From a virus (lineage: Duplodnaviria > Caudoviricetes): DNA of 64,000 nt. The position numbers and the translations under genes were made by a program. The stretch spans positions 1 through 64,000 of the IMG/VR virus record IMGVR_UViG_3300033518_000398; one strand, 5' to 3'. How positions within the stretch are numbered: position 1 is the stretch's first letter; each line of letters starts with the position of its first letter. The notes beneath the pieces are model-generated. The model saw only the letters and a program-made list of their open reading frames with translations. It searched no databases and was not told where the DNA came from. Positions 38,176-63,846 of the stretch are shown here, one piece after another.

Positions 38176-38206
38176 TTTGTATTTATGATTTTAATGCATA
38201 TATTTG
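38176..38206 (+). promoter_or_regulatory. Bacteroidota-type promoter for leader 1
   Basis: TTTG 38176-79, 19-nt spacer, TATATTTG 38199-206. Confidence 0.8.
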
Positions 38207-38243
38207 CACTCAGAAGTTTTAATAAATGTTATTTGTAGTTGAA

Positions 38244-38318
38244 ATGAAAAATTTAGTGAACATAGTGCCCCAACCGCAACAACATCCACAGGATGGTGAA
38301 TGGGGAAAGTACGCTTAA
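38244..38318 (+). CDS. Attenuator leader peptide 1 (Pro/Gln/His sensor)
   Basis: MKNLVNIVPQPQQHPQDGEWGKYA*. Confidence 0.8.
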   Translation: MKNLVNIVPQPQQHPQDGEWGKYA

Positions 38319-38348
38319 TTTTTCAATTGAAGTTTTAAGTTAAACATG

Positions 38349-38377
38349 ACCCCATTCTGAAAAGAGTGGGGTTTTTT
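38349..38377 (+). terminator. Attenuator 1 terminator
   Basis: ACCCCATTCT-GAAA-AGAGTGGGGT + T-run; 5' arm complementary to GAATGGGG at 38298-305. Confidence 0.85.
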
Positions 38378-38387
38378 ATTTTCATAT

Positions 38388-38465
38388 CTGGGTGTACTGC
38401 AGATGGCTATACTACGATGCCTTGGAAGCATCGGTCCGCAGGTTCGAATCCTGCCACTCAGACCA
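38388..38465 (+). tRNA. tRNA-Pro(TGG)
   Basis: GATGC-CT TGG AA-GCATC; T-loop GTTCGAATC; encoded CCA. Confidence 0.85.
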
Positions 38466-38469
38466 ATAT

Positions 38470-38545
38470 GGTGATTGTAGAGGAATTGGTAGACTCACCT
38501 GACTGTGAATCAGGAATCTTGCGGGTTCGAGTCCCGTCTTTCACC
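38470..38545 (+). tRNA. tRNA-His(GTG)
   Basis: CCTGA-CT GTG AA-TCAGG; G-1:C73. Confidence 0.85.
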
Positions 38546-38571
38546 CAAATATCGTTCTTTTATATGGTTAT

Positions 38572-38645
38572 AGAGTAGTAGCGCAGTTGGTTAGCGTACC
38601 GCATTTGGGATGCGGGGGTCGAGAGTTCGAGTCTCTCCTACTCTA
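38572..38645 (+). tRNA. tRNA-Pro(TGG), second copy
   Basis: CCGCA-TT TGG GA-TGCGG; canonical cloverleaf. Confidence 0.9.
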
Positions 38646-38649
38646 CTGT

Positions 38650-38720
38650 GTTAGTTGTAGATGCTGGCATTCTACACGTGACTGTGAATCACGGATACGG
38701 GGGTTCGATTCCCCTCTAAA
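38650..38720 (+). pseudogene. Degenerate tRNA-His(GTG)
   Basis: Intact anticodon arm CGTGA-CT GTG AA-TCACG and T-arm, but the 3' acceptor strand is largely lost. Confidence 0.65.
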
Positions 38721-38760
38721 AAATTTTTGTACTTAAAGTATTTATCTGAAAATTGTGTAT

Positions 38761-39123
38761 ATGAAAAAAGGTAATAAACAAATGTTATTTGAGATGATGC
38801 ATAAGGTTGCAGGAATGCCTTTAAATGAAATGGCAAAACCAATAAAAGAATTTCGTAATACAATTGGTGATAAAAAAATGGTTTATTATTTAATGCCAAA
38901 TACTCCCAAAGCAGAAGAAAAGGGTTATGATACTTCAATATTTAAGGTTGATAATTATCATGGTAACGTGACATTATCATATTATTGGTTAAATAGAGAA
39001 TCAGATGAAAATTGGTATAAACCCAAATATGGTACTCATGTAGATGAATATAAATCACAATATATTTCACAAAGTAGAGAACCAGAAAAAGCAAATATGT
39101 TAATTCAAAAGCATAATTTATAA
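38761..39123 (+). CDS. Late protein with the LFE...LNE leader
   Basis: MKKGNKQMLFEMMHKVAGMPLNE; late motif at 38738. Confidence 0.7.
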   Translation: MKKGNKQMLFEMMHKVAGMPLNEMAKPIKEFRNTIGDKKMVYYLMPNTPKAEEKGYDTSIFKVDNYHGNVTLSYYWLNRESDENWYKPKYGTHVDEYKSQYISQSREPEKANMLIQKHNL

Positions 39124-39169
39124 TATTATTGCATTAAATTATATTTATTTATATATATTTGCATAATAT

Positions 39170-39242
39170 TGACCTGTGGTGTAATTGGCAACACGTCTCA
39201 CTTTGACTGAGAAGAGTCCAAGTTCGAGCCTTGGCAGGTCAA
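39170..39242 (+). tRNA. tRNA-Gln(TTG)
   Basis: TCTCA-CT TTG AC-TGAGA; TATATTTG element at 39154-61 immediately upstream. Confidence 0.9.
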
Positions 39243-39258
39243 CTAATTTTCTTGGAAT

Positions 39259-39486
39259 ATGGATGAATTGGAAAAATTACGAAAAGAAAATGAAGATTTG
39301 AAAGACAAATTAACTGATTTGACTTTTGAATTGAATTATAATAAACAAACCGAGTTAATTGAATTCGTTCGTGAATTATATCAATCATTAGGTAATGTTG
39401 GTAAAAATCTTACAAAGAAAGAAATGATTGAAAATCTGAGAAACCATATTCGAGAGTTTACAAAAAATAATAAAATACAATTATGA
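39259..39486 (+). CDS. Hypothetical coiled-coil protein
   Basis: 75-aa ORF. Confidence 0.65.
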   Translation: MDELEKLRKENEDLKDKLTDLTFELNYNKQTELIEFVRELYQSLGNVGKNLTKKEMIENLRNHIREFTKNNKIQL

Positions 39487-39887
39487 GTAATTATAATCTT
39501 TACCTCGATGACTTTCGTCAACCAATTGATAGTAGTTACTATCTTAATAATCCCATATATGGAAACTTAAAATGGGAAGTTGTTCGAAGTTATGATGAAT
39601 TTGTGAAAATAATAACTGAAAAAGGTATTCCTGATATCGTGAGTTTCGACCATGATTTGGCTGATGAACATTACGACCCAGAATTACATGGTAGTGAAAC
39701 CTATAACGAAAAATACGATAATTTTGTATTTAAAACTGGATATGATTGCGCCAAATGGTTTATTAATTATTGTATTGATAACCAAAAAGATGTACCAGAA
39801 AAAATTTTCATTCATTCTATGAATCCAGCAGGAAGTGCTAATATTAAATCGTTATTTGATACATATAATAAGTATCGTAGAATTTAA
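39483..39887 (+). CDS. Cyclic-phosphate-processing receiver-domain-like protein
   Basis: LYLDDFR, VRSYDEF, VSFDHDL, TGYDCAKW, IHSMNPAG. Confidence 0.7.
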   Translation: MSNYNLYLDDFRQPIDSSYYLNNPIYGNLKWEVVRSYDEFVKIITEKGIPDIVSFDHDLADEHYDPELHGSETYNEKYDNFVFKTGYDCAKWFINYCIDNQKDVPEKIFIHSMNPAGSANIKSLFDTYNKYRRI

Positions 39888-40616
39888 TTACCTTCCTCCA
39901 GCACTCCTTGAACCAGAAGTACCTGTTGAACTTCCAGCACTTCTTGTTGGTTGTGAATAACTACGTGACGTTGTATTTGACGGTGCTCTTGTCGGTGCAG
40001 TACGAGAATATGAGGGAGCAGTTGAGGGTGCGGTTCTTGTTGGTGTATTATATGTACGTGATTGAGTATTTGATGTAGGTCTGGTTGTAGTATTTCTACT
40101 TCGAGTCACATCATTATTATATGTCGGACGTGTAGATGTTCGAGGTACAGTATAGGTTGGTTTATATTCTCTTGTATATGTTGGTTTTGATTTGATGTTA
40201 ACATGGTTTGAAACCACGTATCTATGTCCATAATAATGGTTAATATAATAGCTGTTACGACCCCAATATCCATAATAGTAGCTATTATAATATCTATTAT
40301 AGTAATATGGTGTATACCAATAATTATAATAAAAGGGGTCATAATGGAGACAATAGGGACGATATACATATCCAAATGTTAATAAAACCCGATAATTTGG
40401 TTGGTCATTGTCTTCATAATAGTTGTTAATTATAACGGGTTCAGATTTTTCTTTAACAATTATATAAACAGTATCTGTTTTTGTCGTGTCAGGAGTTCCA
40501 TATAATTCTTTATCTTTCTCAATACGATATTTTTCGTAATTTGAAAGTTCAGCTTCTTGTCCAATTAAAACAAATGCAAAGAGAATTGCGAGTAGTGTTA
40601 ATAGTATCTTTTTCAT
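39888..40616 (-). CDS. Secreted protein with Tyr-rich and Arg/Thr/Ser-rich low-complexity tail
   Basis: Signal peptide MKKILLTLLAILFAFVLIG. Confidence 0.7.
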   Translation of the reverse strand: MKKILLTLLAILFAFVLIGQEAELSNYEKYRIEKDKELYGTPDTTKTDTVYIIVKEKSEPVIINNYYEDNDQPNYRVLLTFGYVYRPYCLHYDPFYYNYWYTPYYYNRYYNSYYYGYWGRNSYYINHYYGHRYVVSNHVNIKSKPTYTREYKPTYTVPRTSTRPTYNNDVTRSRNTTTRPTSNTQSRTYNTPTRTAPSTAPSYSRTAPTRAPSNTTSRSYSQPTRSAGSSTGTSGSRSAGGR

Positions 40617-40698
40617 GACTTGTGTGTTTTTAATTAAAAGACAATTAACGTGCCAAAATTTTACATGAAAATCAACTATTTATAGTAAATTTCATTAC

Positions 40699-41184
40699 AT
40701 GAAAAAACAAGATAGCAAACAAAGACTTTTTGAAGTTATGGGAAGACTTGACAAAACATTCAAGTCTAAATTAAATGAAAATATGGGTGTAGCACTTAAT
40801 GAAGAAAGTAGACCATTATATGATATAGCTCAAGAAATATATCAAGACTGGAAACCAGTACATCCTTATGCAAAAGAATATCTTGATGCAATGTCAAGTC
40901 TATCGTCAATAAATGATAAATATATGTTTGATTCTGGAAGTGAGATTGTAGCACGTTTTCTTTCAAATGCAAGTCAATGGAAAGGCGAAACAGCTAAAAG
41001 AATAAAGACCGAACTAAAACAAATGTTGGGATTGAAAGAGGGTTATTATGATGATGAGGGTGATGACTCTGATGCTGGACATACAGTAAATGGTAAATTA
41101 TTATCTCCAGATGAATATAGGAAATGGAAAGAAGAAGAAGGAGAATATGATGACATGGATAAACTTAACAGACCAAGATATTGA
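40699..41184 (+). CDS. Late protein with the SKQRLFE...LNE leader
   Basis: MKKQDSKQRLFEVMGRLDKTFKSKLNE. Confidence 0.75.
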   Translation: MKKQDSKQRLFEVMGRLDKTFKSKLNENMGVALNEESRPLYDIAQEIYQDWKPVHPYAKEYLDAMSSLSSINDKYMFDSGSEIVARFLSNASQWKGETAKRIKTELKQMLGLKEGYYDDEGDDSDAGHTVNGKLLSPDEYRKWKEEEGEYDDMDKLNRPRY

Positions 41185-41240
41185 AATATCATTAAGAATT
41201 AATTTTAATAAGCATATTTATTGATTTTTTTTGGAAAATG

Positions 41241-41270
41241 TTTGTATTTATGAAAAATTGATTATCTTTG
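41241..41270 (+). promoter_or_regulatory. Bacteroidota-type promoter for leader 2
   Basis: TTTG 41241-44, 18-nt spacer, TATCTTTG 41263-70. Confidence 0.8.
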
Positions 41271-41295
41271 CAGAAGAAATTTAAAATTTAAAACA

Positions 41296-41385
41296 ATGAG
41301 AAATTTACTCGACATATTAATGGTAGCTTTGGAAGCAGTCCTATTATGGGCAGCAGATGAGGATAAAATACGTTCAGTCGGGTAA
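41296..41385 (+). CDS. Attenuator leader peptide 2 (Leu/Asp/Glu/Trp/Met-rich)
   Basis: MRNLLDILMVALEAVLLWAADEDKIRSVG*. Confidence 0.75.
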   Translation: MRNLLDILMVALEAVLLWAADEDKIRSVG

Positions 41386-41416
41386 TACAATATTACACAC
41401 TCCTTTCTTTAATAAG

Positions 41417-41451
41417 AAAAACCCGACTCTCCACAATAAGTCGGGTTTTTT
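41417..41451 (+). terminator. Attenuator 2 terminator
   Basis: AAAAACCCGACT / AGTCGGGTTTTT; 5' arm complementary to AGTCGGGT at 41376-83. Confidence 0.85.
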
Positions 41452-41465
41452 GTTTTAGTGTGTAG

Positions 41466-41477
41466 GTTCTTTGACAT
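41466..41477 (+). promoter_or_regulatory. boxA-like antitermination element
   Basis: GTTCTTTGACAT between the terminator and tRNA-Asp. Confidence 0.65.
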
Positions 41478-41488
41478 GTTGGAAATTT

Positions 41489-41559
41489 GGTCTATTGGGG
41501 TATGGGTATCCTTGGTGGTTGTCGCCCACCAGAAGCGAGTTCGAGTCTCGCATAGACCG
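41489..41559 (+). tRNA. tRNA-Asp(GTC)
   Basis: GGTGG-TT GTC GC-CCACC; G73. Confidence 0.85.
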
Positions 41560-41594
41560 CCTGACTTATTTTCTTTTTCTGTGTATTTATGTAT

Positions 41595-42308
41595 ATGGAA
41601 AAAGAAAATAAGTATTATTTGGTTTATAAAACAACCAATTTGAAAAATGGTAAGTTTTATATTGGTGTTCACGAAACATATAATCTCAATGACGGTTATT
41701 TGGGTTCTGGGAAAGTTCTTAGGAACAGCGTTTATTATCATGGGAAAGAAAATTTTAAAAGGGAAATTCTTGAATTCTGTGAAGATAAAAAAAGCATGTA
41801 TCAAAAAGAAAAGGAATTTGTTACTGAAGAACTGATAATGAATTCTAAATGTATGAATTTAGTTGTTGGTGGAATGGGATTCATTAATGATGAAAAACAT
41901 CGTGAGGTTTCACAATTAGGTGGTAATGCGACTTCATTGAAACTAAAAAATGACCCAGAATTTAGAAAGAGACATCAAAAAATTGTCTCGGAGAATATGA
42001 AAAAAGCGCATCAATTAGGAAAAATTATACCACCTGATTGGACTGGTAAAAAACATAAAGAAGAAACAAAAAGAAAAATCGGAATAAAAAATTCAATCAA
42101 ACAAAGTGGCATTAATAATTCACAATTTGGTACTTGTTGGATAACAAAAAACGGTAATGATAAAAAAATAAAAAAAGAATACCTTCAAGAATATCTTTCT
42201 GAAGGTTGGATTAAAGGTAGATATGCTCGGTTCGAATCCGATATGGGGTACAAAGTATATTCAATTTCACAGTGCTTTGGTGTGGTCATTACCTATTTTT
42301 TCAAGTAA
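41595..42308 (+). CDS. GIY-YIG homing endonuclease with NUMOD3-like motif
   Basis: YLVYKTTNLKNGKFYIGVH, YLGSG, WTGKKHKEETKRKIG; late motif at 41583. Confidence 0.85.
   Translation: MEKENKYYLVYKTTNLKNGKFYIGVHETYNLNDGYLGSGKVLRNSVYYHGKENFKREILEFCEDKKSMYQKEKEFVTEELIMNSKCMNLVVGGMGFINDEKHREVSQLGGNATSLKLKNDPEFRKRHQKIVSENMKKAHQLGKIIPPDWTGKKHKEETKRKIGIKNSIKQSGINNSQFGTCWITKNGNDKKIKKEYLQEYLSEGWIKGRYARFESDMGYKVYSISQCFGVVITYFFK
42225..42251 (+). pseudogene. 3' tRNA fragment (T-arm plus acceptor strand; Glu-like, identity unproven)
   Basis: TCGG-TTCGAAT-CCGA then TATGGGGTAC. Confidence 0.45.
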
Positions 42309-42371
42309 TAATTCATGTCTTTTAAATGATTATTTGAATATTTTTTGTATTTATGATAAACATAACAACCA

Positions 42372-42722
42372 ATGAAAATATTAATTGTTGATGATAATAC
42401 ATTAGTACACTATTTGATAAAAGCCATGATTGAAGCAATGATTGAAGAAAATGGTTTTGAATTGTTTGATGTATATAACGGTGAAGAAGCGGTTGATTTT
42501 GCATTAAATAATGAATTGGACTTGATTTTCATGGACATAATGATGCCAATATTAGATGGTATTGAAGCAACTAAAATAATAAAAAAATTCTCACCCAACA
42601 TACCAATAATATGTATTAGTGCATATCAACAGAATCAAGAGATATCTCGTTTATTTGATGACATAGTTCAAAAACCATTTGTAACTAAGCAAATAATAGG
42701 TAAAATTAAAAAATACGAATAA
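42372..42722 (+). CDS. Stand-alone CheY-like response-regulator receiver domain
   Basis: KILIVDD, DLIFMDIMMP.LDG, PIICISA, KPF. Confidence 0.9.
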   Translation: MKILIVDDNTLVHYLIKAMIEAMIEENGFELFDVYNGEEAVDFALNNELDLIFMDIMMPILDGIEATKIIKKFSPNIPIICISAYQQNQEISRLFDDIVQKPFVTKQIIGKIKKYE

Positions 42723-42751
42723 CATCCAGTATTTATGATAAACCTAAAGTT

Positions 42752-43270
42752 ATGGATTATCATATAATGTTATTTCTGACAATGATTGCAGTATTTGTTT
42801 CATATATTGCTGCAGTATGGATTAAATTTGGCGTACAGCCATCAATAAGTGCAAGTTATGATTGTTGGAAAGGTAATTGGCAATCATTATTCACTCTTTT
42901 CTGTTGGGGATTTGCATTTCCTGCAATGATTATTGGTGTAGAGGTAACACCATTGATGTTTTTCGCAACTGCTGGAATAATGTTCGTTGGTGCTGCATAT
43001 CAAATAAAAAATCCTTGGGTATATAAATATCACATGATATTTGCAGTATCAGGAATAATTTTCAGTCAATTAGCAATATATTTTGGTTATGATTTATTAT
43101 GGTTAAACATTGTGTCTGTTGCGTTAACCGCATTAATATTATTAGCTAAACAATTTCTGGGTTTAAAGAATCACTTCTGGTGGATGGAGTTAGTGTACTT
43201 TGCTGCAATAGTTTATGCTATGGGAACTAAGATTATTCCTCTACTGTATCTAACAACATTTTTATTTTAA
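42752..43270 (+). CDS. Multi-pass membrane protein
   Basis: About five hydrophobic segments; late motif at 42729. Confidence 0.75.
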   Translation: MDYHIMLFLTMIAVFVSYIAAVWIKFGVQPSISASYDCWKGNWQSLFTLFCWGFAFPAMIIGVEVTPLMFFATAGIMFVGAAYQIKNPWVYKYHMIFAVSGIIFSQLAIYFGYDLLWLNIVSVALTALILLAKQFLGLKNHFWWMELVYFAAIVYAMGTKIIPLLYLTTFLF

Positions 43271-43273
43271 TAT

Positions 43274-43344
43274 ACGTCTTTGGTGTAACGGTAGCACGAT
43301 TCTCTCCAAAAGAATTAGTACTTGTTCGAATCGAGTAAGACGTG
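43274..43344 (+). tRNA. tRNA-Trp(CCA)
   Basis: ATTCT-CT CCA AA-AGAAT; G73. Confidence 0.88.
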
Positions 43345-43388
43345 CAATATTAAAAACATGCATTTAAAATTAATCATTTATTTATTAA

Positions 43389-43697
43389 TTATAAAGTAAA
43401 ACCCTTGGTAGATTGCCTTTTACCATTCAATACATGATATGTTGTTGTTTCATCTAATTTATGTTTTTTACAAAAATTTTTAACTGACTTAAATTGATAT
43501 TTAATACCATTTCTATATAGAATATGTTCTTTATTGTTATATTTTATTCTATTTCTTAATTCGGTTAGTGTAAAATCATGTTTTTTAAAAACAGTCCAAT
43601 TTTTAAAAAATGTCATTTTAAGTTTTCTTAACATTAATGACATTAACATCTTATCATTTAAATTATTGTCTTTACAAAATTTGGAAAAATTATCCAC
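43389..43697 (-). CDS. Small NUMOD1/HTH-like protein (endonuclease-associated remnant)
   Basis: FKSVKNFCKKHKL...HVLNGKR; late motif at 43720. Confidence 0.5.
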   Translation of the reverse strand: MDNFSKFCKDNNLNDKMLMSLMLRKLKMTFFKNWTVFKKHDFTLTELRNRIKYNNKEHILYRNGIKYQFKSVKNFCKKHKLDETTTYHVLNGKRQSTKGFTL

Positions 43698-43820
43698 CCC
43701 ATAAAATTTATTCTTAGTTATAAATACGTAAATATTAACAAAAATTAAATAATATATAAAAACTTTGTTTGTTTTTATATATTATTTACATATCTTTGTA
43801 ATTATTAATAAATTCTTTAT

Positions 43821-44558
43821 ATGCTTATAATAAATCATAAGAAAAAGGATTATTATGATGGTGTTGCTGGTACTACTGGCATTGATAAGACCATTGTATA
43901 TCATCGTGAAGTAATTGAACTTGAAGAAGATAAACTACCCAAACAATTTAGAAGAAAAAGTAATTGGAGAAAAGAAGATATTAATCCATTACGTGAGTTG
44001 AGTACATTTAAGTTAAAAAAAGAATTTCATGATGTTTGTGAAGACTATTCATATTTTATAATTGGCTTTTGTGGTAAACTATATATAGGTTGGAAACTTT
44101 ATCGTGAGGAAATATTCCCATACATGGTCGATACTGAAATCACATTTGATTCCGAGTACATGAAATCTATTTTAGAACCAAAATCTTGGTATAATAATCT
44201 CGAAGATAATATTAATTATATTCAGAAGTTTGATGCGATTCAGATTTTCAGAGATTTAAAAACACCAGTTTTTGTATTTGATAATGATTATAGTAGAACA
44301 CAACTTGATACCAAACATTATTCGATTAGAAATTATAATCCGAAATTTTTCGTAAACCCAGTTCTAAAAGAGTATCAATTTTATAAAGTGTTTGAATCAT
44401 TTCAAGCTTTTCAAGAAATTCAGATGTTTCTTGGTGGTGTACTTGGTAGTGGTGAAAAAAACATTGTAGAAGTGGCTGATAAATATAAAATTACCCAGCA
44501 TGGGTTTGATAAATGGAGTTTTAGAAAAATGTCTGAAAATGGAAAAAGAACTACATAA
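43821..44558 (+). CDS. Hypothetical protein
   Basis: 245-aa ORF; promoter TTTG 43768 / TATCTTTG 43791. Confidence 0.75.
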   Translation: MLIINHKKKDYYDGVAGTTGIDKTIVYHREVIELEEDKLPKQFRRKSNWRKEDINPLRELSTFKLKKEFHDVCEDYSYFIIGFCGKLYIGWKLYREEIFPYMVDTEITFDSEYMKSILEPKSWYNNLEDNINYIQKFDAIQIFRDLKTPVFVFDNDYSRTQLDTKHYSIRNYNPKFFVNPVLKEYQFYKVFESFQAFQEIQMFLGGVLGSGEKNIVEVADKYKITQHGFDKWSFRKMSENGKRTT

Positions 44559-44823
44559 TATTTATATAATACCAGCAGTATTTGTTAGATACAGAGAAGA
44601 TGGCAACGTGATTTTAAGATGTTTACAGGGTAAAGAAACTGTTGACAGGGCATTTGAACCCAATTTAATAAAAGGTATTGAAAACCCAAAGTATTTATTG
44701 CTGGGAATCATGGCTGGTGTTGGATACATGCAGTTAAATGTTTGCGATGGTGAAGAGTTTGTGAATTTATTCATAAAAAAATGGAATGTGTTGTATCAGG
44801 ATGTTAATTATAAATTAAAATAG
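44500..44823 (+). CDS. Hypothetical protein (start uncertain)
   Basis: ORF following 43821-44558. Confidence 0.6.
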   Translation: MGLINGVLEKCLKMEKELHNIYIIPAVFVRYREDGNVILRCLQGKETVDRAFEPNLIKGIENPKYLLLGIMAGVGYMQLNVCDGEEFVNLFIKKWNVLYQDVNYKLK

Positions 44824-44918: not shown

Positions 44919-44938
44919 TTTTTGTTCATTGATATTAT

Positions 44939-45303
44939 GGGGGCGACTTGGATTTGATTAGATGTCAGATTGGTAAAGTAAGCAAGTCTTAGTTGAATCA
45001 GACTAAGTAAAAAAGGTTCAAAGCAGAAATGCAAACAATTTTTCAGAGGACATGATGTCCTTCTCAACTTCTGTAACAAGAGGTATCACCGTTTTCGAGA
45101 GTGCTGAACTCGAAATGGCTGCTTGAGAACAATAAACGGCAAAAACTTCTGGTGAAGTAAGTTATGAATAAGTTAGTAACGAATCCCGAAGCGAAACTAA
45201 TATTAAACTGTTATATTTTGCTGATTTAGAAAAATCGGATAAACTTGTAGAAAACCTATTAATCACATTTAAGACGAGGGTTCGAATCCCTCCGCTTCCA
45301 CCA
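44939..45303 (+). ncRNA. ssrA: tmRNA
   Basis: 5' GGGGGCGACTTGGATTTGA, G3.U70, 3' GGTTCGAATCCCTCCGCTTCCACCA; tag ORF 45031-45126 ending in MAA*. Confidence 0.92.
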
Positions 45304-45754: not shown

Positions 45755-45757
45755 TTT

Positions 45758-51094: not shown

Positions 51095-52183
51095 ATGGAA
51101 GAAATACTTATTAAAGTTGACTGGAAAGTATTACAAAATTATATTGATAATAATTTAATTATTGCTAATAAACATCCAGAATATAATCTTTGGATACTTA
51201 ATTATAGCTCTAAAACACAATCAAAAAATTTTTGGGATTTATATACAATATCATGTAGAGGATTGATTGTTGATGAAAATGGCGTTGTTGTTGGTAGATG
51301 TATGAGAAAATTTAAGAACTATGAACAGCATGACCCATCAGAAATTGATATGTCGAAGAAATTCGAAATTTTTGAAAAGATGGACGGCTCATTAATTATC
51401 TTATTTTATTATGAACCACGTATGAGGTGGATTGTAGCTTCAAGAGGTTCATTTATCTCAGAACAGTCACTCCATGCTGAGAAGATGATTGATGCAAACG
51501 TGTATAAGTATTTAAACACAAAGTCAACATATTTGTTTGAAGTAATTTATCCTGAAAATCGTATAGTTGTTGATTATGGTGATAGAAATGAACTTGTATT
51601 GCTTGGAAATATAATCACAGCAACTGGTGAAGAATTACCATACGATAAGTTGGTTAGTATATATTCTAAGTTTTTTACTGTTGTCGAAAGGTTTGAAATT
51701 GAAAACATAAACTTTTTAAAGAAATTGAAGGAACTTGAAGAAGATAATAAAGAGGGTTTTGTTGTACGTTTCGAAAATGGTTTCAGAGTAAAAGTTAAGT
51801 TCGAAGAATATATCAGATTACACGGTATTTTAACAAATGTATCAAACTTAACTGTTTGGGAACACTTGAAGAATAACTATAATTTTGATGAACTTCTCGA
51901 CAGAGTTCCAGACGAATTTTATGACTGGTTAATGAGAACAGTAAAAACATTACAGTCAGAATATAATGAAATCGAAAGAGTGGCATTATTAGAATTCGTG
52001 AAAATATATCACATTAATGGAATTACTGACCGTAAAGATTTTGCAACAGAAGTAATAAAAACTGAACATAGTTCAATATTGTTTAAATTGTATGATAAAA
52101 GGTCATATGGTGAAATTATCTGGAAGCAAATCAGACCTGTATACAGCAAGCCATTTAAGGATGGCTTCGAGTATATTGCATAA
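51095..52183 (+). CDS. T4 Rnl1-like RNA ligase
   Basis: ILNYS, CRGLIVD, EKMDGSL (motif I), ASRGSF, FEVIYPENRIVVDY, EGFVV, RVKVK. Confidence 0.88.
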   Translation: MEEILIKVDWKVLQNYIDNNLIIANKHPEYNLWILNYSSKTQSKNFWDLYTISCRGLIVDENGVVVGRCMRKFKNYEQHDPSEIDMSKKFEIFEKMDGSLIILFYYEPRMRWIVASRGSFISEQSLHAEKMIDANVYKYLNTKSTYLFEVIYPENRIVVDYGDRNELVLLGNIITATGEELPYDKLVSIYSKFFTVVERFEIENINFLKKLKELEEDNKEGFVVRFENGFRVKVKFEEYIRLHGILTNVSNLTVWEHLKNNYNFDELLDRVPDEFYDWLMRTVKTLQSEYNEIERVALLEFVKIYHINGITDRKDFATEVIKTEHSSILFKLYDKRSYGEIIWKQIRPVYSKPFKDGFEYIA

Positions 52184-53744: not shown

Positions 53745-53776
53745 TTTGGAAATCTCGTATTTATATCTTTACTTTG
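53745..53776 (+). promoter_or_regulatory. Bacteroidota-type promoter variant for leader 3
   Basis: TTTG 53745-48; imperfect -7 element (TATCTTTA 53764 or TTACTTTG 53769). Confidence 0.55.
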
Positions 53777-53803: not shown

Positions 53804-53893
53804 ATGAGAACATTTGGAACATATTATCTTTATAAATCTTATAAGAAAACTCTTATGAGAATCGGGATTTTTATGTCCAAAACGCAAAGATAA
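53804..53893 (+). CDS. Attenuator leader peptide 3 (Tyr/Lys sensor)
   Basis: MRTFGTYYLYKSYKKTLMRIGIFMSKTQR*. Confidence 0.8.
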   Translation: MRTFGTYYLYKSYKKTLMRIGIFMSKTQR

Positions 53894-53919: not shown

Positions 53920-53948
53920 AAACCCGATTCGTAAGATTCGGGTTTTTT
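53920..53948 (+). terminator. Attenuator 3 terminator
   Basis: AAACCCGA / TCGGGTTTTTT; CCCGATTC complementary to GAATCGGG at 53859-66. Confidence 0.85.
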
Positions 53949-53988
53949 GTTATATTATTCTTTGAAGATTTGAAAGCGAAATGAAATT

Positions 53989-54077
53989 GGGAGTACGGCA
54001 ACGATGGTGGTGTTGCGCTAAACTGTAAATTTAGTCCCTTCGGGTAAACATTGGAGGTTCGAATCCTTCTGCTCTCA
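53989..54077 (+). tRNA. tRNA-Tyr(GTA)
   Basis: CTAAA-CT GTA AA-TTTAG; long variable arm. Confidence 0.88.
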
Positions 54078-54082
54078 CAAAT

Positions 54083-54156
54083 TCCCTCGTAGTTTAATTG
54101 GTAAAACCCCATACTTTTAATATGCGAAAGTCCCAGTTCGAGTCTGGGCGAGGGAA
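54083..54156 (+). tRNA. tRNA-Lys(TTT)
   Basis: CATA-CT TTT AA-TATG with a C:C mismatch at the top of the anticodon stem. Confidence 0.85.
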
Positions 54157-54280
54157 CTCTGTGATTTTCGAGTCTTAATCATGTGTTAAATTTATTTAGT
54201 TTATAAAAAAATCCTTGCATTTTTAAATAAAATGTATTATATTTGTTGAAAATAACTTTAAGCTAAAGTAATTTGAAAAA

Positions 54281-57437: not shown

Positions 57438-57666
57438 GTGGAAATATTTTATAGTTATAATGATTTACCTATAAATACAAGAAAATTTCGAATTAGAATT
57501 AAAATTAAATAACAAATTATTTTCAATCAATTTTTCGTAAAATTCTATGACACATCAACTTAAAAAATATTAAATAATTCTTCCTAAAATAATTTAAATC
57601 ACTTGTATTTATTCGGACGATTCAATATATTTGCAAACATAAATTTATAAAAAATTACTATTCACT

Positions 57667-60600
57667 ATGGCACAAAAAACCCTAAAAACCTACACAAAAC
57701 AAGAAGTTGAAAAAGCAACATTAAACTATTTTAAAGGAGATGGATTAGCTACCGATGTATGGATGAAAAAATATTGTTTAAAGGATGAAAACAATTATTA
57801 CGAACTCACTCCTGATGATATGCATAAAAGAATTGCAAGTGAACTTGCAAGAATAGAAGCTAAATATCCAAACCCACTTACCGAAGAACAAATTTTTGAA
57901 ACATTGAAAAATTTTAAGAGAATTGTACCACAAGGAAGTCCGATGTCAGGAATTGGAAATAATTTTCAGGTAGTATCTATTGGTAATTGTTTTGTTATTG
58001 GAAATTATGGTGATGGTGATTCTTATGGTGGAATATTGAATATCGACCAAGAACAGGTTCAATTAATGAAACGCAGGGGTGGCGTTGGACATGATTTATC
58101 ACATATTCGTCCAGCAGGTAGTCCAGTAAAAAATAGTGCAATTAGTAGTACAGGTATCGTACCCTTTATGGAAAGATATTCAAACAGTACCAGAGAGGTT
58201 GCACAAGACGGTAGACGTGGAGCACTTATGCTCAGTGTGTCGATTAAACATCCAGATTCTGAAGCATTTATTGATGCCAAACTTGAATCTGGTAAGGTAA
58301 CAGGTGCTAATGTTTCAGTTAAAATCACCGATGAATTCATGAAAGCAGTAATGAATAATAATATGTTTCAACAGCAATATCCAATAGATAGTGATAACCC
58401 TAAATATGTTAAAAGCATTGACGCTCAAAAACTTTGGAAGAAAATTGTATATAATGCATGGAAATCAGCCGAACCCGGTATCTTGTTTTGGGATAAAATA
58501 ATTGGTGAATCAATACCTTCTTGTTATGGTAAGGAATGGATTGAAAGAAGTACTAATCCATGTGTTAGTGAAGATACATTAGTATTAACACATCATGGTT
58601 ATTATGAAATTAGTGAGTTAGTAGATAAGCCAACATTTGTTTGGAATGGTATGAATTTCTCCGAAGTTACGCCAACAATTACTGGTTATAATCAGAAAAT
58701 GTTAAAAGTTATCTTTAGTGATGGTTCTGAATTGAAATGTACACCATATCATGGATTTTATACTTGGGAAGGTTTTGAACGTGATGGAAAATCAATAAAA
58801 AAGGAAGCTAAAGATTTAATCGTTGGAGATAAACTCGAAAAACATGAATTTCCAACACTTTTTGACCATCAAGTTTTTCATGTCGATAAAACTTTTTATA
58901 CGTTAGGATTTTTTGCTGGTGATGGTTTTGTGAAAAGAGATAGCACAGCACATGTATCGTTATATGGTGCAAAGAAAAATCTTCTTGATAAATTAGATGT
59001 AATTGGTAATGTTTCTGAAGATATTGAAAATGATAAATTAACAATACGTGTTGACTTACCTGTAGATTATTTTGGAATTGATTTACATGAACTAAAAAAA
59101 TATGTTCCTAAACGTCATGATAATAATTCATCGGCAATGATGTCATGGTTGGCAGGTATTATAGATTCTGATGGATGTCGTAATTCAGAAGAAGGTTCAA
59201 TTTCAATATCATCAATAGATAAACAATTCTTAATGGATATTAAGTTACATCTTTTGAACGTAATGGGTGTCAGTGGTAGTGTAATTGATGAAAAAGAAGG
59301 TGGGTTACATGAAATTAAAGGCGTTAAATATGATTGTAATAAATCATATCGTTTAATAATTAGTGCATATAATGTTAAAAAACTTTATGATTTAGGTTTA
59401 CGTACCTATCGTGTTAAAATCGATGATGTTAATCCGAACCGTGATGCAAGTAGATTCATTACTGTGAAATCGATTGAGGAAATAGAAGATGCTGAAAAGG
59501 TTTATTGTTTTACTGAACCAGAAAGAGGTCGTGGATGTTTCAACGGTATTGTTACTGCGAATTGTGGCGAGTTACCACTCCCGCCATATGATAGCTGTAG
59601 ATTACTTGCAATTAATTTATTTGGTTATGTGAGAAATCCGTTTACCAAAGAAGCATATTTTGATATGGAAAGTTTTAAGGGCGATGTGATTATATCTATG
59701 CGATATATGGATGATATTATCGATTTAGAACTCGAAAAAATCGATAAAATATTAGAAAAAATCGAATCTGACCCAGAACCTGAAAATTTAAAAAGTGTAG
59801 AAAAAGAATTGTGGAATAATATTAGAAGAAAAGCTGAGTTAGGTCGTAGAACTGGACTTGGTGTTACAGGTGAAGGTGATATGATTGCTGCAATGGGACT
59901 ACGTTACGGTACTGATGATGCCACCGAATTTAGTGAAGAAGTTCATAAAACATTGAAATTAGAAGCATATCGCTCAAGTGTTATTATGGCTAAAGAACGT
60001 GGTGCATTTCCGATATACGATTGGGATAGAGAAAAATTCAATCCATTTATTCGTAGAATAATGGATGAGGATACTGAATTATATAATGAAATGGTAACTT
60101 TTGGTCGTAGAAACATTGCATTACTTACAATCGCACCGACTGGAACAGTTAGTATTATGACACAAACTACATCTGGAATTGAACCAGCATTCTTACCAGT
60201 ATATATGCGTAGGCGTAAGATTAATCCGCAGGAAAAGGACGTTCGAATTGATTTTATTGATGAAGAAGGTGTTGCTTGGATGGAATATCCAGTATTTCAC
60301 CATAAATTTGAAATGTGGTTAGGAATCAATGGCTACGATGTTGAAGTGGTGAAAACCATGAATAAGGAACAACTGGATGAAATTGTTAAAAAATCCCCAT
60401 TTTATAAAGCAACTTCCAATGACGTTGATTGGGTAAAAAAGGTTGAAATGCAAGGCAGGGTTCAAAGGCATGTTGACCATTCCATAAGCACAACTGTGAA
60501 CGTCCCTAATGATACAACAGAGGAACTTGTTGGTAAAGTATATGAAACGGGTTGGCGTAGTGGTTGTAAGGGTATTACTATTTATCGTGATGGTAGTCGT

Positions 60601-61236
60601 AGTGGTGTGTTGGTTAGTCAAAAAGAAGAAAAGAAAGTAGAAGAACTCCAAGACGTGCATGCACCAAAACGTCCCAAAAGATTAAAAGGTGAAATACATA
60701 GGTTTCAGAACAATCTGGAAAAATGGATAGCTGTTGTTGGTATGAAAGATGGTAGACCATATGAAATCTTTACTGGTGTTAATGCTAATGGTCTTAGTAA
60801 TTTACCAACAAACGTTAAAGACTGTGAAGTCGTTAAAAATATTATCGAAGTCGAAGTTCTTGATGATAACGATAAACCAATTAAAATAAAGAAAAAAAGA
60901 TATGATATTGAATATGTTGATGTTGATGGCATTAAACAAGTACACACTGGTTTAAATCATGCATTCAATCCAGAGTTCTGGAACTATGCCAAGTTAATCT
61001 CTGGTATAATGAGACATGGTATGCCAGTTCTTAAACAATACGAATTAATTGAGTCATTGAATTTTAAAGAAGACTATATTAATACGTGGAAAAATGGTGT
61101 GGCACGTGTAATTAAAAAATATATTAAGGATGGTGTTAAAAGCAAAGGAACGTGTCCTGAATGCGGTGGTACTGATTTTATTTTTCAAGAAGGATGTGTT
61201 AAATGTAGTAGTTGTTCTTGGACGAAATGTGGATAA
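57667..61236 (+). CDS. nrdJ: Class II (B12-dependent) ribonucleotide reductase with intein
   Basis: RRGGVG, RRGALM, AEPGILF, TNP/CGE, TIAPTGT, GITIYRDGSR, C-terminal CPECG..GC..C..C; promoter TATATTTG at 57626. Confidence 0.92.
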   Translation: MAQKTLKTYTKQEVEKATLNYFKGDGLATDVWMKKYCLKDENNYYELTPDDMHKRIASELARIEAKYPNPLTEEQIFETLKNFKRIVPQGSPMSGIGNNFQVVSIGNCFVIGNYGDGDSYGGILNIDQEQVQLMKRRGGVGHDLSHIRPAGSPVKNSAISSTGIVPFMERYSNSTREVAQDGRRGALMLSVSIKHPDSEAFIDAKLESGKVTGANVSVKITDEFMKAVMNNNMFQQQYPIDSDNPKYVKSIDAQKLWKKIVYNAWKSAEPGILFWDKIIGESIPSCYGKEWIERSTNPCVSEDTLVLTHHGYYEISELVDKPTFVWNGMNFSEVTPTITGYNQKMLKVIFSDGSELKCTPYHGFYTWEGFERDGKSIKKEAKDLIVGDKLEKHEFPTLFDHQVFHVDKTFYTLGFFAGDGFVKRDSTAHVSLYGAKKNLLDKLDVIGNVSEDIENDKLTIRVDLPVDYFGIDLHELKKYVPKRHDNNSSAMMSWLAGIIDSDGCRNSEEGSISISSIDKQFLMDIKLHLLNVMGVSGSVIDEKEGGLHEIKGVKYDCNKSYRLIISAYNVKKLYDLGLRTYRVKIDDVNPNRDASRFITVKSIEEIEDAEKVYCFTEPERGRGCFNGIVTANCGELPLPPYDSCRLLAINLFGYVRNPFTKEAYFDMESFKGDVIISMRYMDDIIDLELEKIDKILEKIESDPEPENLKSVEKELWNNIRRKAELGRRTGLGVTGEGDMIAAMGLRYGTDDATEFSEEVHKTLKLEAYRSSVIMAKERGAFPIYDWDREKFNPFIRRIMDEDTELYNEMVTFGRRNIALLTIAPTGTVSIMTQTTSGIEPAFLPVYMRRRKINPQEKDVRIDFIDEEGVAWMEYPVFHHKFEMWLGINGYDVEVVKTMNKEQLDEIVKKSPFYKATSNDVDWVKKVEMQGRVQRHVDHSISTTVNVPNDTTEELVGKVYETGWRSGCKGITIYRDGSRSGVLVSQKEEKKVEELQDVHAPKRPKRLKGEIHRFQNNLEKWIAVVGMKDGRPYEIFTGVNANGLSNLPTNVKDCEVVKNIIEVEVLDDNDKPIKIKKKRYDIEYVDVDGIKQVHTGLNHAFNPEFWNYAKLISGIMRHGMPVLKQYELIESLNFKEDYINTWKNGVARVIKKYIKDGVKSKGTCPECGGTDFIFQEGCVKCSSCSWTKCG
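58561..59562 (+). mobile_element. Intein (334 aa) with LAGLIDADG endonuclease in NrdJ
   Basis: CVSEDTL... to ...IVTAN then Cys+1; LGFFAGDG and LAGIIDSDG motifs. Confidence 0.92.
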
Positions 61237-61556
61237 TTGGGAAATTTTTAAAGTTTTGATGAAAATCAACTCACTGTGAATTTCGATGGTCAGGATTTGA
61301 ATATCACCTTCGCATTAGAAGAAAAAGAAGAAAAAATCTAAACTTCCGATAAAGGTTAGTAGTCAAATGATTTTTCATTTGGAAACCCATCATTTAATAT
61401 TTGATGGGTTTTTTTATAACAATAAATTAACGTTTGTTTATTTCCATTTACTTTTTTTCAAGTAATTATATTTGTCAGGTCGGAAAGTGCCTTAAATGTT
61501 CCAATAGAGGAAGAGCCTGATTCCTATTTTTTTCGTATTTATAATAAAAGATTATC

Positions 61557-61772
61557 ATGAAAAAGAAATTATTTATATTTTTACTATTATTAACATCTGT
61601 AATATTTACTAGTTGTGCTACTCAAGAATATGCTACAACATATAAAAAACAAAAAAGTCTTATGTTATTGGATAATACTAATTTAAGTGGAAATAATAAG
61701 TATTATCAACAAAAACATACTCGTTATAATAAGAGTAGTTATAACAAACATATAAAAAAATTTAAAAAATAA
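61557..61772 (+). CDS. Small lipoprotein
   Basis: Signal MKKKLFIFLLLLTSVIFTSC; late motif at 61535. Confidence 0.7.
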   Translation: MKKKLFIFLLLLTSVIFTSCATQEYATTYKKQKSLMLLDNTNLSGNNKYYQQKHTRYNKSSYNKHIKKFKK

Positions 61773-61782
61773 TTGAAAATAA

Positions 61783-61813
61783 TTTGGAATTATCAAAACT
61801 TTATTTACCTTTG
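61783..61813 (+). promoter_or_regulatory. Bacteroidota-type promoter for leader 4
   Basis: TTTG 61783-86, 19-nt spacer, TACCTTTG 61806-13. Confidence 0.8.
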
Positions 61814-61865
61814 CAAAGTATTTAGATGAAAGAGATTTCAAATTTAATCAAAACATATTAAAATA

Positions 61866-61994
61866 ATGAAAGCACAGGTATCCAATATTAATATTTCGTC
61901 AACGATTAATAGTCGTAATGGAAATGGTATATTCTGTTCAAGTTTTACAGGCAGAAATATAGCAGATACGGGTTCTGGTTTTCATGAGTCATAA
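61866..61994 (+). CDS. Attenuator leader peptide 4 (Ser/Asn/Ile/Gly/Cys sensor)
   Basis: MKAQVSNINISSTINSRNGNGIFCSSFTGRNIADTGSGFHES*. Confidence 0.8.
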   Translation: MKAQVSNINISSTINSRNGNGIFCSSFTGRNIADTGSGFHES

Positions 61995-62018
61995 ATAACT
62001 CATAAAAATATTAAAAAG

Positions 62019-62048
62019 AACCCGAATTCACAAGATTCGGGTTTTTTT
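62019..62048 (+). terminator. Attenuator 4 terminator
   Basis: AACCCGAA / TTCGGGTT + T-run; AGAACCCG complementary to CGGGTTCT at 61969-76. Confidence 0.85.
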
Positions 62049-62062
62049 GTTCTTTGAAATAT

Positions 62063-62746
62063 TTATAATAAAATTTTGGTGCGGATGATTTCATCGATAA
62101 TTGTGAAATATGTGTATGCCCTATCTATTTTAAAATTAATGAATTTTGATGTGTCTATAATACATAACTCAATTCCCTGTTCTAAACAGGCTTGAAATTT
62201 ACGGTTATCGTTATTTTGAATCTGGTTTAGTTTATCTTCACCATAAATTGGTTCATAATGAAAAACACCATTAAGTTCGAATGCAAGTTTAAGTTCTGGA
62301 ATATAAATATCAAGTTCAGAATTTATAGTAGTTTTATCATTGAAGAAAAAGTCAATGTTTGGATATTTTTTTATTAATTCAATGGCAATCCATTTTTCAA
62401 GTTTTGAAATTCGAGTACCTTTAGTCTTGTGTGTGTTATTATATGTAATAGAACAAGACCTTGAGCAGAAATTTTTTGTGGATTTAGAATTTTTTATTTC
62501 ATAATTCGTTTTAATAATTTCTTTTCCGCAATTACCACACATCACTATGTGTCTTTTAGTTAAAATTTGATATTGATGTGAACAATTTTGTGAACAAAAT
62601 TTTGCCGAATTTCTTTTACAATTAATTGCATACATAATTTGTCTTTTTGTTGTATGAAAAGGGTTACCACAAAATTCGCATTTACATTCAAATAAATCTG
62701 TTACTTTTCCAGATATTAATTTTTCATTTTCAAATAATGGTATCAT
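62063..62746 (-). CDS. Zn-finger + Vsr/DUF559-like endonuclease
   Basis: CEFC, CSQNC, CGNC, CSRSC; ELDIYIPELKLAFELNGVFHY; late motif at 62761. Confidence 0.7.
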   Translation of the reverse strand: MIPLFENEKLISGKVTDLFECKCEFCGNPFHTTKRQIMYAINCKRNSAKFCSQNCSHQYQILTKRHIVMCGNCGKEIIKTNYEIKNSKSTKNFCSRSCSITYNNTHKTKGTRISKLEKWIAIELIKKYPNIDFFFNDKTTINSELDIYIPELKLAFELNGVFHYEPIYGEDKLNQIQNNDNRKFQACLEQGIELCIIDTSKFINFKIDRAYTYFTIIDEIIRTKILL

Positions 62747-62893
62747 ACGTAAATTTTATTATAAATACTTTAAAAATTGAATTTCTATTCAGTTTTTAAA
62801 CTCAAAATAAAATATAACTCTTACTGGTTATAAACATCAAATATAGCCTCTACAGGTTATACCGTAAGACGTTCATTGACATGCTGGTTTTAT

Positions 62894-62974
62894 GAAGGGT
62901 TGCCTGAGTGGTCGAAAGGGACTGTCTGCAAAACAGTTAGGAAACTCACGTGGGTTCAAATCCCACACCCTTCT
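62894..62974 (+). tRNA. tRNA-Cys(GCA) with enlarged variable region
   Basis: ACTGT-CT GCA AA-ACAGT; U73; 12-nt variable region. Confidence 0.85.
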
Positions 62975-62982
62975 CAAACATT

Positions 62983-63100
62983 ATTTAGTAGTCGTATGCT
63001 ATAGGACACTCTGGGCGATTGGACACCAGAGTCAACAGAGATAGACAGACAAAAACGTAATGGGCATGCGTATCGTACAATCCGCAATGGCATGCTAAAT
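62983..63100 (+). ncRNA. Candidate structured ncRNA within the tRNA array
   Basis: Closing stem ATTTAGTA/TGCTAAAT; inner hairpin ACTCTGG/CCAGAGT. Confidence 0.45.
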
Positions 63101-63102
63101 AT

Positions 63103-63183
63103 TGTGACGTGGATGAATGGTTTAGTCACCACGCTGATACCGTGGGTCGCAAGACAACGTGGGTTCGAGTCCCACCGTCACAA
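63103..63183 (+). tRNA. tRNA-Ile(GAT) with long variable arm
   Basis: CCACG-CT GAT AC-CGTGG; variable arm GTC-GCAA-GAC. Confidence 0.85.
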
Positions 63184-63200
63184 CAAAGTGTTGCAACACT

Positions 63201-63289
63201 GAATGATTAGAATTTCGTAGCATAGTGGTAATGCTGCCCGCAAGAAAGGGTGAAGATTGGTTCGAGTCCAATCAAAATTTTAATCATTC
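63201..63289 (+). ncRNA. tRNA-like RNA with a 15-bp acceptor helix and non-canonical anticodon loop
   Basis: GAATGATTAGAATTT/AAATTTTAATCATTC; D-arm GCAT/ATGC; T-arm GATTGG-TTCGAGT-CCAATC. Confidence 0.55.
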
Positions 63290-63295
63290 GTTAAT

Positions 63296-63376
63296 GGATA
63301 GGTACTCAAACTGGTTAAGAGGATAGTCTTGAAAACTATTAGGTCGGTTAATCCCCGATGTGTGAGTTCGAACCTC
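63296..63376 (+). tRNA. tRNA-Ser(TGA)
   Basis: ATAGT-CT TGA AA-ACTAT; long variable arm; G73. Confidence 0.88.
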
Positions 63377-63442
63377 ACTCTATCCGCATTATATTATTCG
63401 ATTATTTAAAATATTTAGAACTATATTTAAATATTTTTTACT

Positions 63443-63514
63443 GCGAGTGTAGCACAACGGCTAGTGCGTCTGGCTTCCACCCAGAGGATGAGGTTTCGAC
63501 TACCTCTACTCGCT
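63443..63514 (+). tRNA. tRNA-Gly(TCC)
   Basis: TCTGG-CT TCC AC-CCAGA; U73. Confidence 0.88.
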
Positions 63515-63600
63515 CAACAATGTCTTCCACGCCTCTAAATTATGCGCATCTGGAAGGCTACTTGTAGAATCCAATCATAGTACTGTGATTGGATTCATAT

Positions 63601-63673
63601 AGTGATGTGGCGCAACGGTCAGCGCAGGACGCTTATATCGTCAAGGTTGTGGGTTCGAATCCCACCTTCGCTA
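63601..63673 (+). tRNA. tRNA-Ile(TAT)
   Basis: GACG-CT TAT AT-CGTC; canonical D and T arms. Confidence 0.85.
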
Positions 63674-63680
63674 CAAATAT

Positions 63681-63767
63681 GACTTCGTTGCTTTAGTTGG
63701 TCGAAAAGTCCAGACTGTTAATCTGGTGAACAATGTTCCATCGCAGGTTCGAATCCTGCCGAAGTCG
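63681..63767 (+). tRNA. tRNA-Asn(GTT) with long variable arm
   Basis: CCAGA-CT GTT AA-TCTGG; variable arm GAAC-AAT-GTTC; G73. Confidence 0.85.
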
Positions 63768-63771
63768 CAAT

Positions 63772-63846
63772 GCACCAGTAGCTCAGGGGTAGAGCGTTTG
63801 TCCGTTAAACAAAGGGTCGGGATTTCGAAATTCTCTTGGTGCGCCA
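63772..63846 (+). tRNA. tRNA-Asn(GTT), second copy, with C33
   Basis: TTTGT-CC GTT AA-ACAAA; encoded CCA. Confidence 0.78.

Follow-up and report, generated by a model that had tools for sequence, protein, structure and literature searches.

Why phages carry transfer RNA (tRNA) genes, and how these genes are controlled, is an open question, to which compensation for codon usage and escape from tRNA-targeting defences are the usual answers. The question is raised by the IMG/VR virus contig IMGVR_UViG_3300033518_000398 (Duplodnaviria; Caudoviricetes). The first 64 kb of this 78.8-kb contig, hereafter the window, hold four cassettes (C1–C4), in each of which a promoter, a short leader open reading frame (ORF) and an intrinsic terminator are followed by tRNA genes. 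We describe the anatomy of the cassettes, their conservation, the match between leader composition and tRNA content, their pairing potential and the geometry of a ribosome on the leader. From this computational evidence each cassette appears to be a transcription attenuator of the leader-peptide (ribosome-mediated) type, with a set of phage tRNA genes under its control, a reading to which we give a probability of about 0.8.

Four cassettes with leader ORF, terminator and tRNA genes

An initial annotation of the window, made from the sequence alone, had placed cassettes at 38176, 41241, 53745 and 61783, and at each of these positions we find the promoter, ORF, complementary segment, terminator and tRNA genes that it described (Table 1). 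The leader ORFs have the claimed lengths of 24–42 codons. Late in every one of them (4/4) lies an 8-nt segment perfectly complementary to the 5' arm of the terminator in the same cassette; we call this segment region 2, the antiterminator strand. When all leaders are compared with all terminator arms, matches are 8 on the diagonal and 4–6 off it, so the complement is specific to its own arm, and shuffled leaders attain an 8-nt complement in 4–20 of 2000 trials per cassette. The four terminators have stems of 11–12 pairs followed by U tracts (–14.2 to –17.9 kcal/mol). A terminator scan gave no fifth cassette before the Thr and Arg tRNA genes of the contig (66011–67206), nor before those for Leu, Met or Trp.

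Leader composition follows the tRNA content

The leaders fall into four families, enriched in Pro/Gln/His, Asp/Glu/Val/Leu/Ala/Trp/Met, Lys/Tyr and Ser/Asn/Ile/Thr/Phe/Cys/Gly/Arg respectively; the family sizes (3 + 7 + 2 + 8) add up to all 20 amino acids. Where relatives are more complete, the tRNAs behind each family are exactly those of its own group. The sensing zones of C1–C4 consist of cognate residues at 8/8, 19/20, 7/9 and 27/27 positions, in line with the earlier claim that leader residues are those carried by the downstream tRNAs; the claim needs amending for C2, where the cognate set is not Asp and Trp only but all seven residues of the family. The C2 group of this contig comprises tRNAs for Asp, Trp, Leu, Leu and Met only, relatives carry all seven isotypes, and the Glu, Val and Ala tRNAs of the group are either lost from the contig or kept elsewhere.

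The correspondence holds beyond the window. With the phage's own proteome as background, matched leader/array pairs have a mean z of 3.0, against –0.5 for pairs from different families. When arrays were permuted among 13 leader families, the shuffled-pairing test that had been proposed with the initial annotation, 12 of 20000 permutations gave a total as high as the observed one. Cross-tabulation of residue enrichment in the leader and presence of the tRNA, for the five families with several members, yields 28/5/4/63, an odds ratio of 88. Composition also follows content where arrays have been re-sorted: in one such lineage a CGC Arg codon has been added to a leader of Pro/Gln/His type, whose array opens with tRNA-Arg(ACG), and where a leader is rich in Ile, Asn, His, Met, Ser, Trp and Arg, exactly those seven isotypes follow.

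Conservation in related phages

Relatives were sought in IMG/VR by terminator sequence alone. The pattern of the C3/C4-type terminators occurs in 19 IMG/VR stretches; wherever the flank suffices, tRNA genes lie downstream, and the leader upstream belongs to one of two conserved families. All four families, in the order of the window, were recovered when five related contigs were scanned for terminators in an unbiased way. Two looser patterns, each with more than 100 stretches, yielded further cassettes and, as controls, 143 terminators that have the same sequence but no tRNA genes behind them. An upstream complement to the arm of at least 7 nt accompanies 66 of 75 tRNA-linked terminators but 5 of 143 controls; for a short ORF ending within 75 nt the figures are 72/75 and 49/143. 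The cassettes are kept, as four leader families, in dozens of IMG/VR contigs, mostly jumbo-phage fragments, the C1 leader ORF in 27 relatives and the C2 leader in 17. Among the GenBank phages (INPHARED) there is no match to the C1 or C3 cassette beyond chance terminator matches.

A chance origin of the cassettes was considered and rejected on the family permutation, the contrast between tRNA-linked and control terminators, the odds ratio of 88 and the leader shuffles.

Signs of translation and RNA structure

In the seven-codon Pro/Gln/His core of the C1 family (18 sequences), 5/7 third positions vary and 0/14 first or second positions do; variation within this block is synonymous only. Indels in the coding parts are multiples of three in 12 of 13 cases, the exception being a +1 in one relative (L049). 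C1 region 2 contrasts with this: across 27 sequences 7 of its 8 bases are invariant, and the Glu codon in this segment always keeps its third base, which points to selection at the RNA level.

Region 2 has two alternative predicted partners, region 1 within the leader and the 5' arm of the terminator (1:2 and 2:3 pairing). For the Lys/Tyr leaders 99% of the 1:2 helix is paired, with two G.U/A-U positions and a compensatory GC to AU double change in three sequences, a change that joins a synonymous Lys substitution with a Leu/Phe replacement. In the terminator of the C3 family a U.U mismatch is unchanged across 11 sequences. The U that is mismatched there has a partner in the antiterminator, which would tip the balance toward read-through as soon as region 2 is free. 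In C1 the inner helix is not conserved.

Minimum free energy folds predict the 1:2 (anti-antiterminator) structure in C1–C3, and the 2:3 duplexes have computed energies of –14.4 to –14.6 kcal/mol in all four cassettes. Without translation C1 and C2 fold as 1:2 plus terminator. A ribosome was modelled as a mask extending 14 nt downstream from the first base of the A-site codon, and the transcript was folded as it stands before the 3' arm exists. In this footprint model 2:3 forms with the A-site at codons up to P15 (C1), D23 (C2), K15 (C3) and N31 (C4) and not beyond, and these are the ends of the control blocks; a ribosome at the stop codon covers region 2. The check for mutually exclusive terminator and antiterminator states that had been called for therefore gives the two alternatives, with a boundary where the control codons end, qualified in that C3 and C4 are partly in the 2:3 state when untranslated. 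Together with the conserved ORFs, the composition match and the invariant antiterminator site, this geometry supports the core of the initial annotation, namely leader-peptide attenuators sensing the codons of the downstream tRNAs.

Promoters and the boxA-like element

The Bacteroidota-type promoters claimed for all four cassettes were scanned as TTTG, 17–21 nt, TAnnTTTG. The exact pattern is present at 38176, 41241 and 61783; the promoter at 53745 is a near match, one base off in the –7 box. The motif GTATTTAT lies in three of the four promoters (38179, 41244 and 53757), as had been noted. It has 41 sites in the whole window, against 7.7 expected, and is probably a phage-specific promoter element. 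Most sites are on the coding strand 5–25 nt upstream of a start codon (e.g. 41583, 42729 and 45810).

A boxA-like element had been described near every terminator. We find TTCTTTGA after the terminator in C2, C3 and C4 (41467, 53958–53965 and 62050–62057) and none in C1, so that the statement holds for three cassettes rather than four. A conserved element with the TTCTTTGA core follows 28 of 75 tRNA-linked terminators and 1 of 143 others; it may be boxA-like or an unrecognised promoter.

Transcription of the tRNAs from internal promoters only would speak against gating. Between terminator and first tRNA no promoter motif (–7 box or GTATTTAT) is present, the gaps being 14, 40 and 40 nt in C1–C3. 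The distal genes differ: tRNA-Gln (39170) has a –7 box of its own at 39154 and tRNA-Trp sits behind genes headed by GTATTTAT. In this contig gating is therefore plausible for the proximal tRNAs only.

Proposed mechanism

Translation of the leader, its coupling to transcription and the response of read-through are predicted here from the sequence and the footprint model. A transcript started at the cassette promoter would be followed by a ribosome translating the short leader ORF. With charged cognate tRNAs plentiful, the ribosome would move on toward the stop codon and cover region 2, the terminator would form and the polymerase would halt before the tRNA genes. With slow decoding, the ribosome would stall with its leading edge just before region 2, leaving it to pair with the 5' arm of the terminator, and the polymerase would read through to the tRNAs. 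Slow decoding would thus open a gate that the tRNAs produced should close again. Because the products are the same tRNAs that the leader tests, the outcome would be negative feedback on decoding capacity in four channels that jointly cover all 20 amino acids. On this model the device reports slow decoding whatever the cause.

A wider proposal, which we regard as tentative, is that the four attenuators make up a complete isotype-resolved homeostat: the phage would measure, in each channel, the speed at which every codon class is read and replace just the deficient tRNAs, be it after host shut-off, through codon-usage mismatch or upon attack by tRNA-cleaving defences, with the boxA-like element shielding read-through polymerases from termination along the structured array. 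This proposal would extend to large phages as a general rule not described before, since the same design appears in unrelated lineages, including, as a candidate, a cultured Agrobacterium phage (see below).

Several points weigh against gating by attenuation. Support for it is wholly computational. C2 and C4 are degraded in this contig, both being interrupted by homing-endonuclease genes; tRNAs for Glu, Val and Ala are missing from it, and the distal tRNAs (Gln, Trp and probably Leu and Met) are near other promoters. The conserved element behind the terminator could be an unrecognised internal promoter. Untranslated C3 and C4 are predicted to form 6–7 of the 2:3 pairs at decision time, so that basal read-through could be high. 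Stem covariation, a further check suggested with the initial annotation, is compensatory in the Lys/Tyr 1:2 helix as given above but moderate at the pair flanking the core in the Asp/Glu family (13/21 paired), and the case for 2:3 pairing is therefore not rested on that pair. Finally, the terminator and arm sequences are fixed by ascertainment, since relatives were found via terminator patterns, and Fisher p-values are inflated because many rows share ancestry, although the contrast between tRNA-linked and control terminators is very large all the same.

Alternative explanations

The same switch might have been selected for counter-defence on demand, supplying replacement tRNAs when an anticodon nuclease or another defence depletes them. 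A switch that reads decoding rate would respond to tRNA cleavage, and the phage also encodes an RNA ligase (51095–52183) and a transfer-messenger RNA (tmRNA). Lys and Tyr, whose tRNAs are reportedly targets of anticodon nucleases in the cases cited by the initial annotation, have a small channel of their own. The channels, however, span all 20 amino acids, including many isotypes that are not known as nuclease targets, which fits general supply control better, and the grouping of isotypes varies among lineages without an obvious link to defence. We consider counter-defence as the selected function unlikely.

Somewhat less likely again is that the switch acts as an infection timer, with arrays off early, when host tRNAs suffice, and on once decoding slows after host shut-off and at the peak of late protein synthesis, or with GTATTTAT driving the cassettes at one stage only. 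Host-independent functions encoded by the phage, such as ribonucleotide reductase, and the overlap of three of the four cassette promoters with a motif that heads many phage genes would suit a timer. Timing has no need, however, of four isotype-matched leaders conserved at the level of codon families.

Leader and tRNA genes might also be uncoupled: the ORFs could encode small proteins or have arisen by chance, the hairpins could be ordinary terminators, and unrecognised promoters could drive the tRNAs. The peptide of the Asp/Glu family does resemble a small hydrophobic helix, the element conserved between terminator and tRNA in 28/75 cassettes is a candidate promoter, and ordinary terminators of the same sequence are common elsewhere (the 143 controls). 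This reading leaves unexplained that leader composition follows array content in five families and in re-sorted lineages, that the arm complement is near-universal in tRNA-linked cassettes and rare elsewhere, and that the region-2 Glu third base of the Pro/Gln/His family is invariant while its control codons change synonymously. In many cassettes, moreover, the first tRNA starts 6–20 nt past the U tract, which leaves no room for a promoter. Taken together these observations make the absence of coupling very improbable.

A translation-independent, T-box-like switch binding tRNA directly would also account for the position before translation-related genes and for terminator/antiterminator alternatives, but is barely credible, as the region has no match to a T-box or other riboswitch family (Rfam, E up to 1), the leaders (130–190 nt from ATG to U tract) are too short for a specifier stem, and the ORF is kept with synonymous variation and almost only in-frame indels.

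Other features of the window and its source

Table 1. Coordinates of the four cassettes and of associated features in the window
Feature	Position	Strand	Remark
C1 promoter (TTTG, spacer, TAnnTTTG)	38176–38206	+	GTATTTAT at 38179
C1 leader ORF, 24 codons	38244–38318	+	Codons 9–16 (38268–38291): 8/8 Pro, Gln or His
C1 region 2 (antiterminator strand)	38298–38305	+	Complement of 38350–38357
C1 intrinsic terminator	38348–38380	+	11-bp stem and U tract
C1 tRNA-Pro, His, Pro, His	38388–38724	+	First tRNA 14 nt past terminator stem
C2 promoter	41241–41270	+	GTATTTAT at 41244
C2 leader ORF, 29 codons	41296–41385	+	Codons 4–23: 19/20 Asp, Glu, Val, Leu, Ala, Trp or Met
C2 region 2	41376–41383	+	Complement of terminator 5' arm 41421–41428
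C2 intrinsic terminator	41419–41453	+	5' arm 41421–41428
C2 boxA-like element, between terminator and first tRNA	41466–41488	+	TTCTTTGA at 41467, longer form in C2
C2 tRNA-Asp	41489–41561	+	ARAGORN call
Homing-endonuclease gene 3' of C2 tRNA-Asp	41589–42308	+	
C3 promoter, near match to –33/–7 pattern	53745–53776	+	GTATTTAT at 53757
C3 leader ORF, 29 codons	53804–53893	+	Codons 7–15: 7/9 Tyr or Lys
C3 region 1	53838–53846	+	
C3 region 2	53852–53866	+	
C3 8-nt complement	53859–53866	+	Pairs with terminator arm 53923–53930
C3 intrinsic terminator	53920–53951	+	Contains U.U mismatch
C3 tRNA-Tyr and tRNA-Lys	53989–54157	+	
C4 promoter	61783–61813	+	
C4 leader ORF, 42 codons	61866–61994	+	Codons 6–32: 27/27 Ser, Asn, Ile, Thr, Arg, Gly, Phe or Cys
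C4 region 2	61969–61976	+	Complement of terminator arm 62017–62024
C4 intrinsic terminator	62017–62052	+	TTCTTTGA next, at 62050
HNH homing-endonuclease gene, between C4 attenuator and its array	62063–62746	–	
boxA-like variant immediately 5' of C4 tRNA-Cys	62871–62887	+	Element at the same place in a relative (L022)
C4 tRNA-Cys, Ile, odd tRNA, Ser, Gly, Ile(UAU), Asn, Asn	62894–63846	+	
tRNA-Thr and four tRNA-Arg	66011–67206 of the contig		Past the window end

The window has 26 tRNA and tmRNA genes and also encodes ribonucleotide reductase, the RNA ligase and several homing endonucleases. The second group of tRNA genes includes the tmRNA gene (44939–45303; 97 bits in Rfam). Homing-endonuclease genes lie inside two of the four tRNA blocks (C2 and C4), at sites where relatives have more tRNAs or nothing, which suggests that endonuclease invasion is fragmenting the arrays.

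Some of the tRNA genes are unusual. The second tRNA-His (38647–38724) and tRNA-Asp are called by ARAGORN only and are absent from the list of matches to the Rfam tRNA model (E up to 1); the unusual form of tRNA-Asp is kept in one relative (L028). In the tRNA-like gene at 63210–63281, which the Rfam model omits, ARAGORN reads a four-base anticodon in an eight-base loop. The loop contains GAA, and arrays of the same family in relatives include tRNA-Phe(GAA); the gene could be a decayed or a frameshift-reading tRNA. Odd tRNAs with two-base 'anticodons' occur in relatives. An 11-codon mini-ORF (61827–61862) lies between the promoter and the leader ORF of C4.

The source contig is probably a fragment of a jumbo phage, because related IMG/VR contigs are rated 13–29% complete and have 18–47 tRNAs each. 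Words of the contig occur in DNA sequencing runs labelled as microbial mat, soil and wetland metagenomes, and the runs that contain at least half of the sampled words are labelled as microbial mat metagenomes; no RNA run is among the runs matching these words.

Candidate cassettes in other phages

Distant protein relatives of one gene of the window include cultured jumbo phages. Agrobacterium phage Atu_ph07 has a candidate cassette on the minus strand, whose leader is the 42-codon 'hypothetical' ORF AUZ95228.1 (MF403008.1, 339118–339246; 7560–7745 of stretch L275). Ala, Arg, Phe, Pro, Ile, Tyr, Trp, Met and Glu account for 19 of 22 residues in the middle zone of this ORF, a 9-nt segment is complementary to an arm of the following terminator, and after this candidate terminator come tRNAs for exactly those nine isotypes. 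Atu_ph07 is therefore a candidate for a tractable test system in a cultured phage.

The huge uncultured phage LR756500.1 (minus strand of stretch L280) has, within the first 200 nt of the reverse complement, an ORF of 24 codons in which His, Glu, Val, Trp, Leu and Ile are abundant. A terminator and tRNA-His, Glu, Val, Trp and Leu follow; the complement to the terminator arm is only 6 nt long. A strict terminator scan of the main tRNA region of Xanthomonas phage XacN1 gave no cassette, which is not evidence of absence. Genes for tRNAs with a CTA anticodon, labelled 'Pyl' by ARAGORN, are present in a relative (G004; last tRNA of stretch L034), in XacN1 (L273) and in L280, and none is in the window; these tRNAs could be amber suppressors.

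Significance and comparison with known systems

If the cassettes work as attenuators, the phage senses decoding itself and makes tRNAs as they are needed, and classic attenuation extends to stable-RNA genes. Limiting one amino acid or tRNA would then derepress one cassette only, and a start-codon knockout would lock C1 and C2 off. The sorting of tRNA isotypes into fixed groups in these genomes would be explained, and the cassettes would offer compact isotype-specific translation sensors for synthetic biology. What appears to be new is the application of a known attenuation mechanism to tRNA genes, together with the candidate cassette in cultured Atu_ph07.

A full-text literature search, in which subscription journals were mostly outside coverage so that absence is not proof, found no description of leader-peptide control of tRNA genes. 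The nearest published case is the trn operon of Anabaena sp. PCC 7120, whose long tRNA array is induced when translation is under stress (PMC8421152; PMC10272220). Its control is at the promoter, where the repressor TrcR binds direct repeats (tandem, 9 nt) over the –10 box and start site (PMC8421152), and the words 'attenuat' and 'leader' are absent from the 2021 paper on this operon. Both systems have an accessory tRNA array that is silent, or here would be silent, until translation is impaired; the Anabaena array differs in being neither isotype-specific nor phage-borne and in using a repressor rather than attenuation.

T-boxes likewise sense tRNA status and choose between terminator and antiterminator, but they bind uncharged tRNA without translation and control synthetase and amino-acid genes. 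No Rfam family explains the cassettes; the sole match to a leader family is to Thr_leader (61982–62051), with 29.4 bits against a threshold of 55 (E 0.08).

In rrn operons boxA mediates processive antitermination. The TTCTTTGA-core element resembles it in heading a structured stable-RNA operon right after a regulated terminator, and differs in being known by sequence only and in being absent from C1 and from most cassettes. The pheST leader of Escherichia coli, in which Phe codons control phenylalanyl-tRNA synthetase, shares with the proposed mechanism leader-peptide attenuation of a gene of the translation apparatus; it differs in that it is cellular, senses one amino acid and controls a synthetase.

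The closest mechanistic likeness is to the leader-peptide attenuators of enterobacteria, which include trpL, hisL, pheL and leuL as well as the multivalent thr (Thr/Ile codons) and ilvGMEDA (Ile/Leu/Val codons) leaders. The cassettes share with the multivalent leaders a short ORF with clustered control codons for several amino acids, predicted alternative 1:2, 2:3 and 3:4 pairings, the intrinsic terminator and the position of the stop codon, at which a finishing ribosome would block the antiterminator. In sequence they are unrelated to these leaders. The scope of classical attenuators, amino-acid biosynthesis or synthetase genes, is not matched, as the genes downstream are tRNAs. The cassettes are, moreover, phage-borne and have Bacteroidota-type promoters, and four paralogues divide the 20 amino acids among them. 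With tRNA genes as targets in place of biosynthetic enzymes, the loop would feed back on the ligand of its own sensor.

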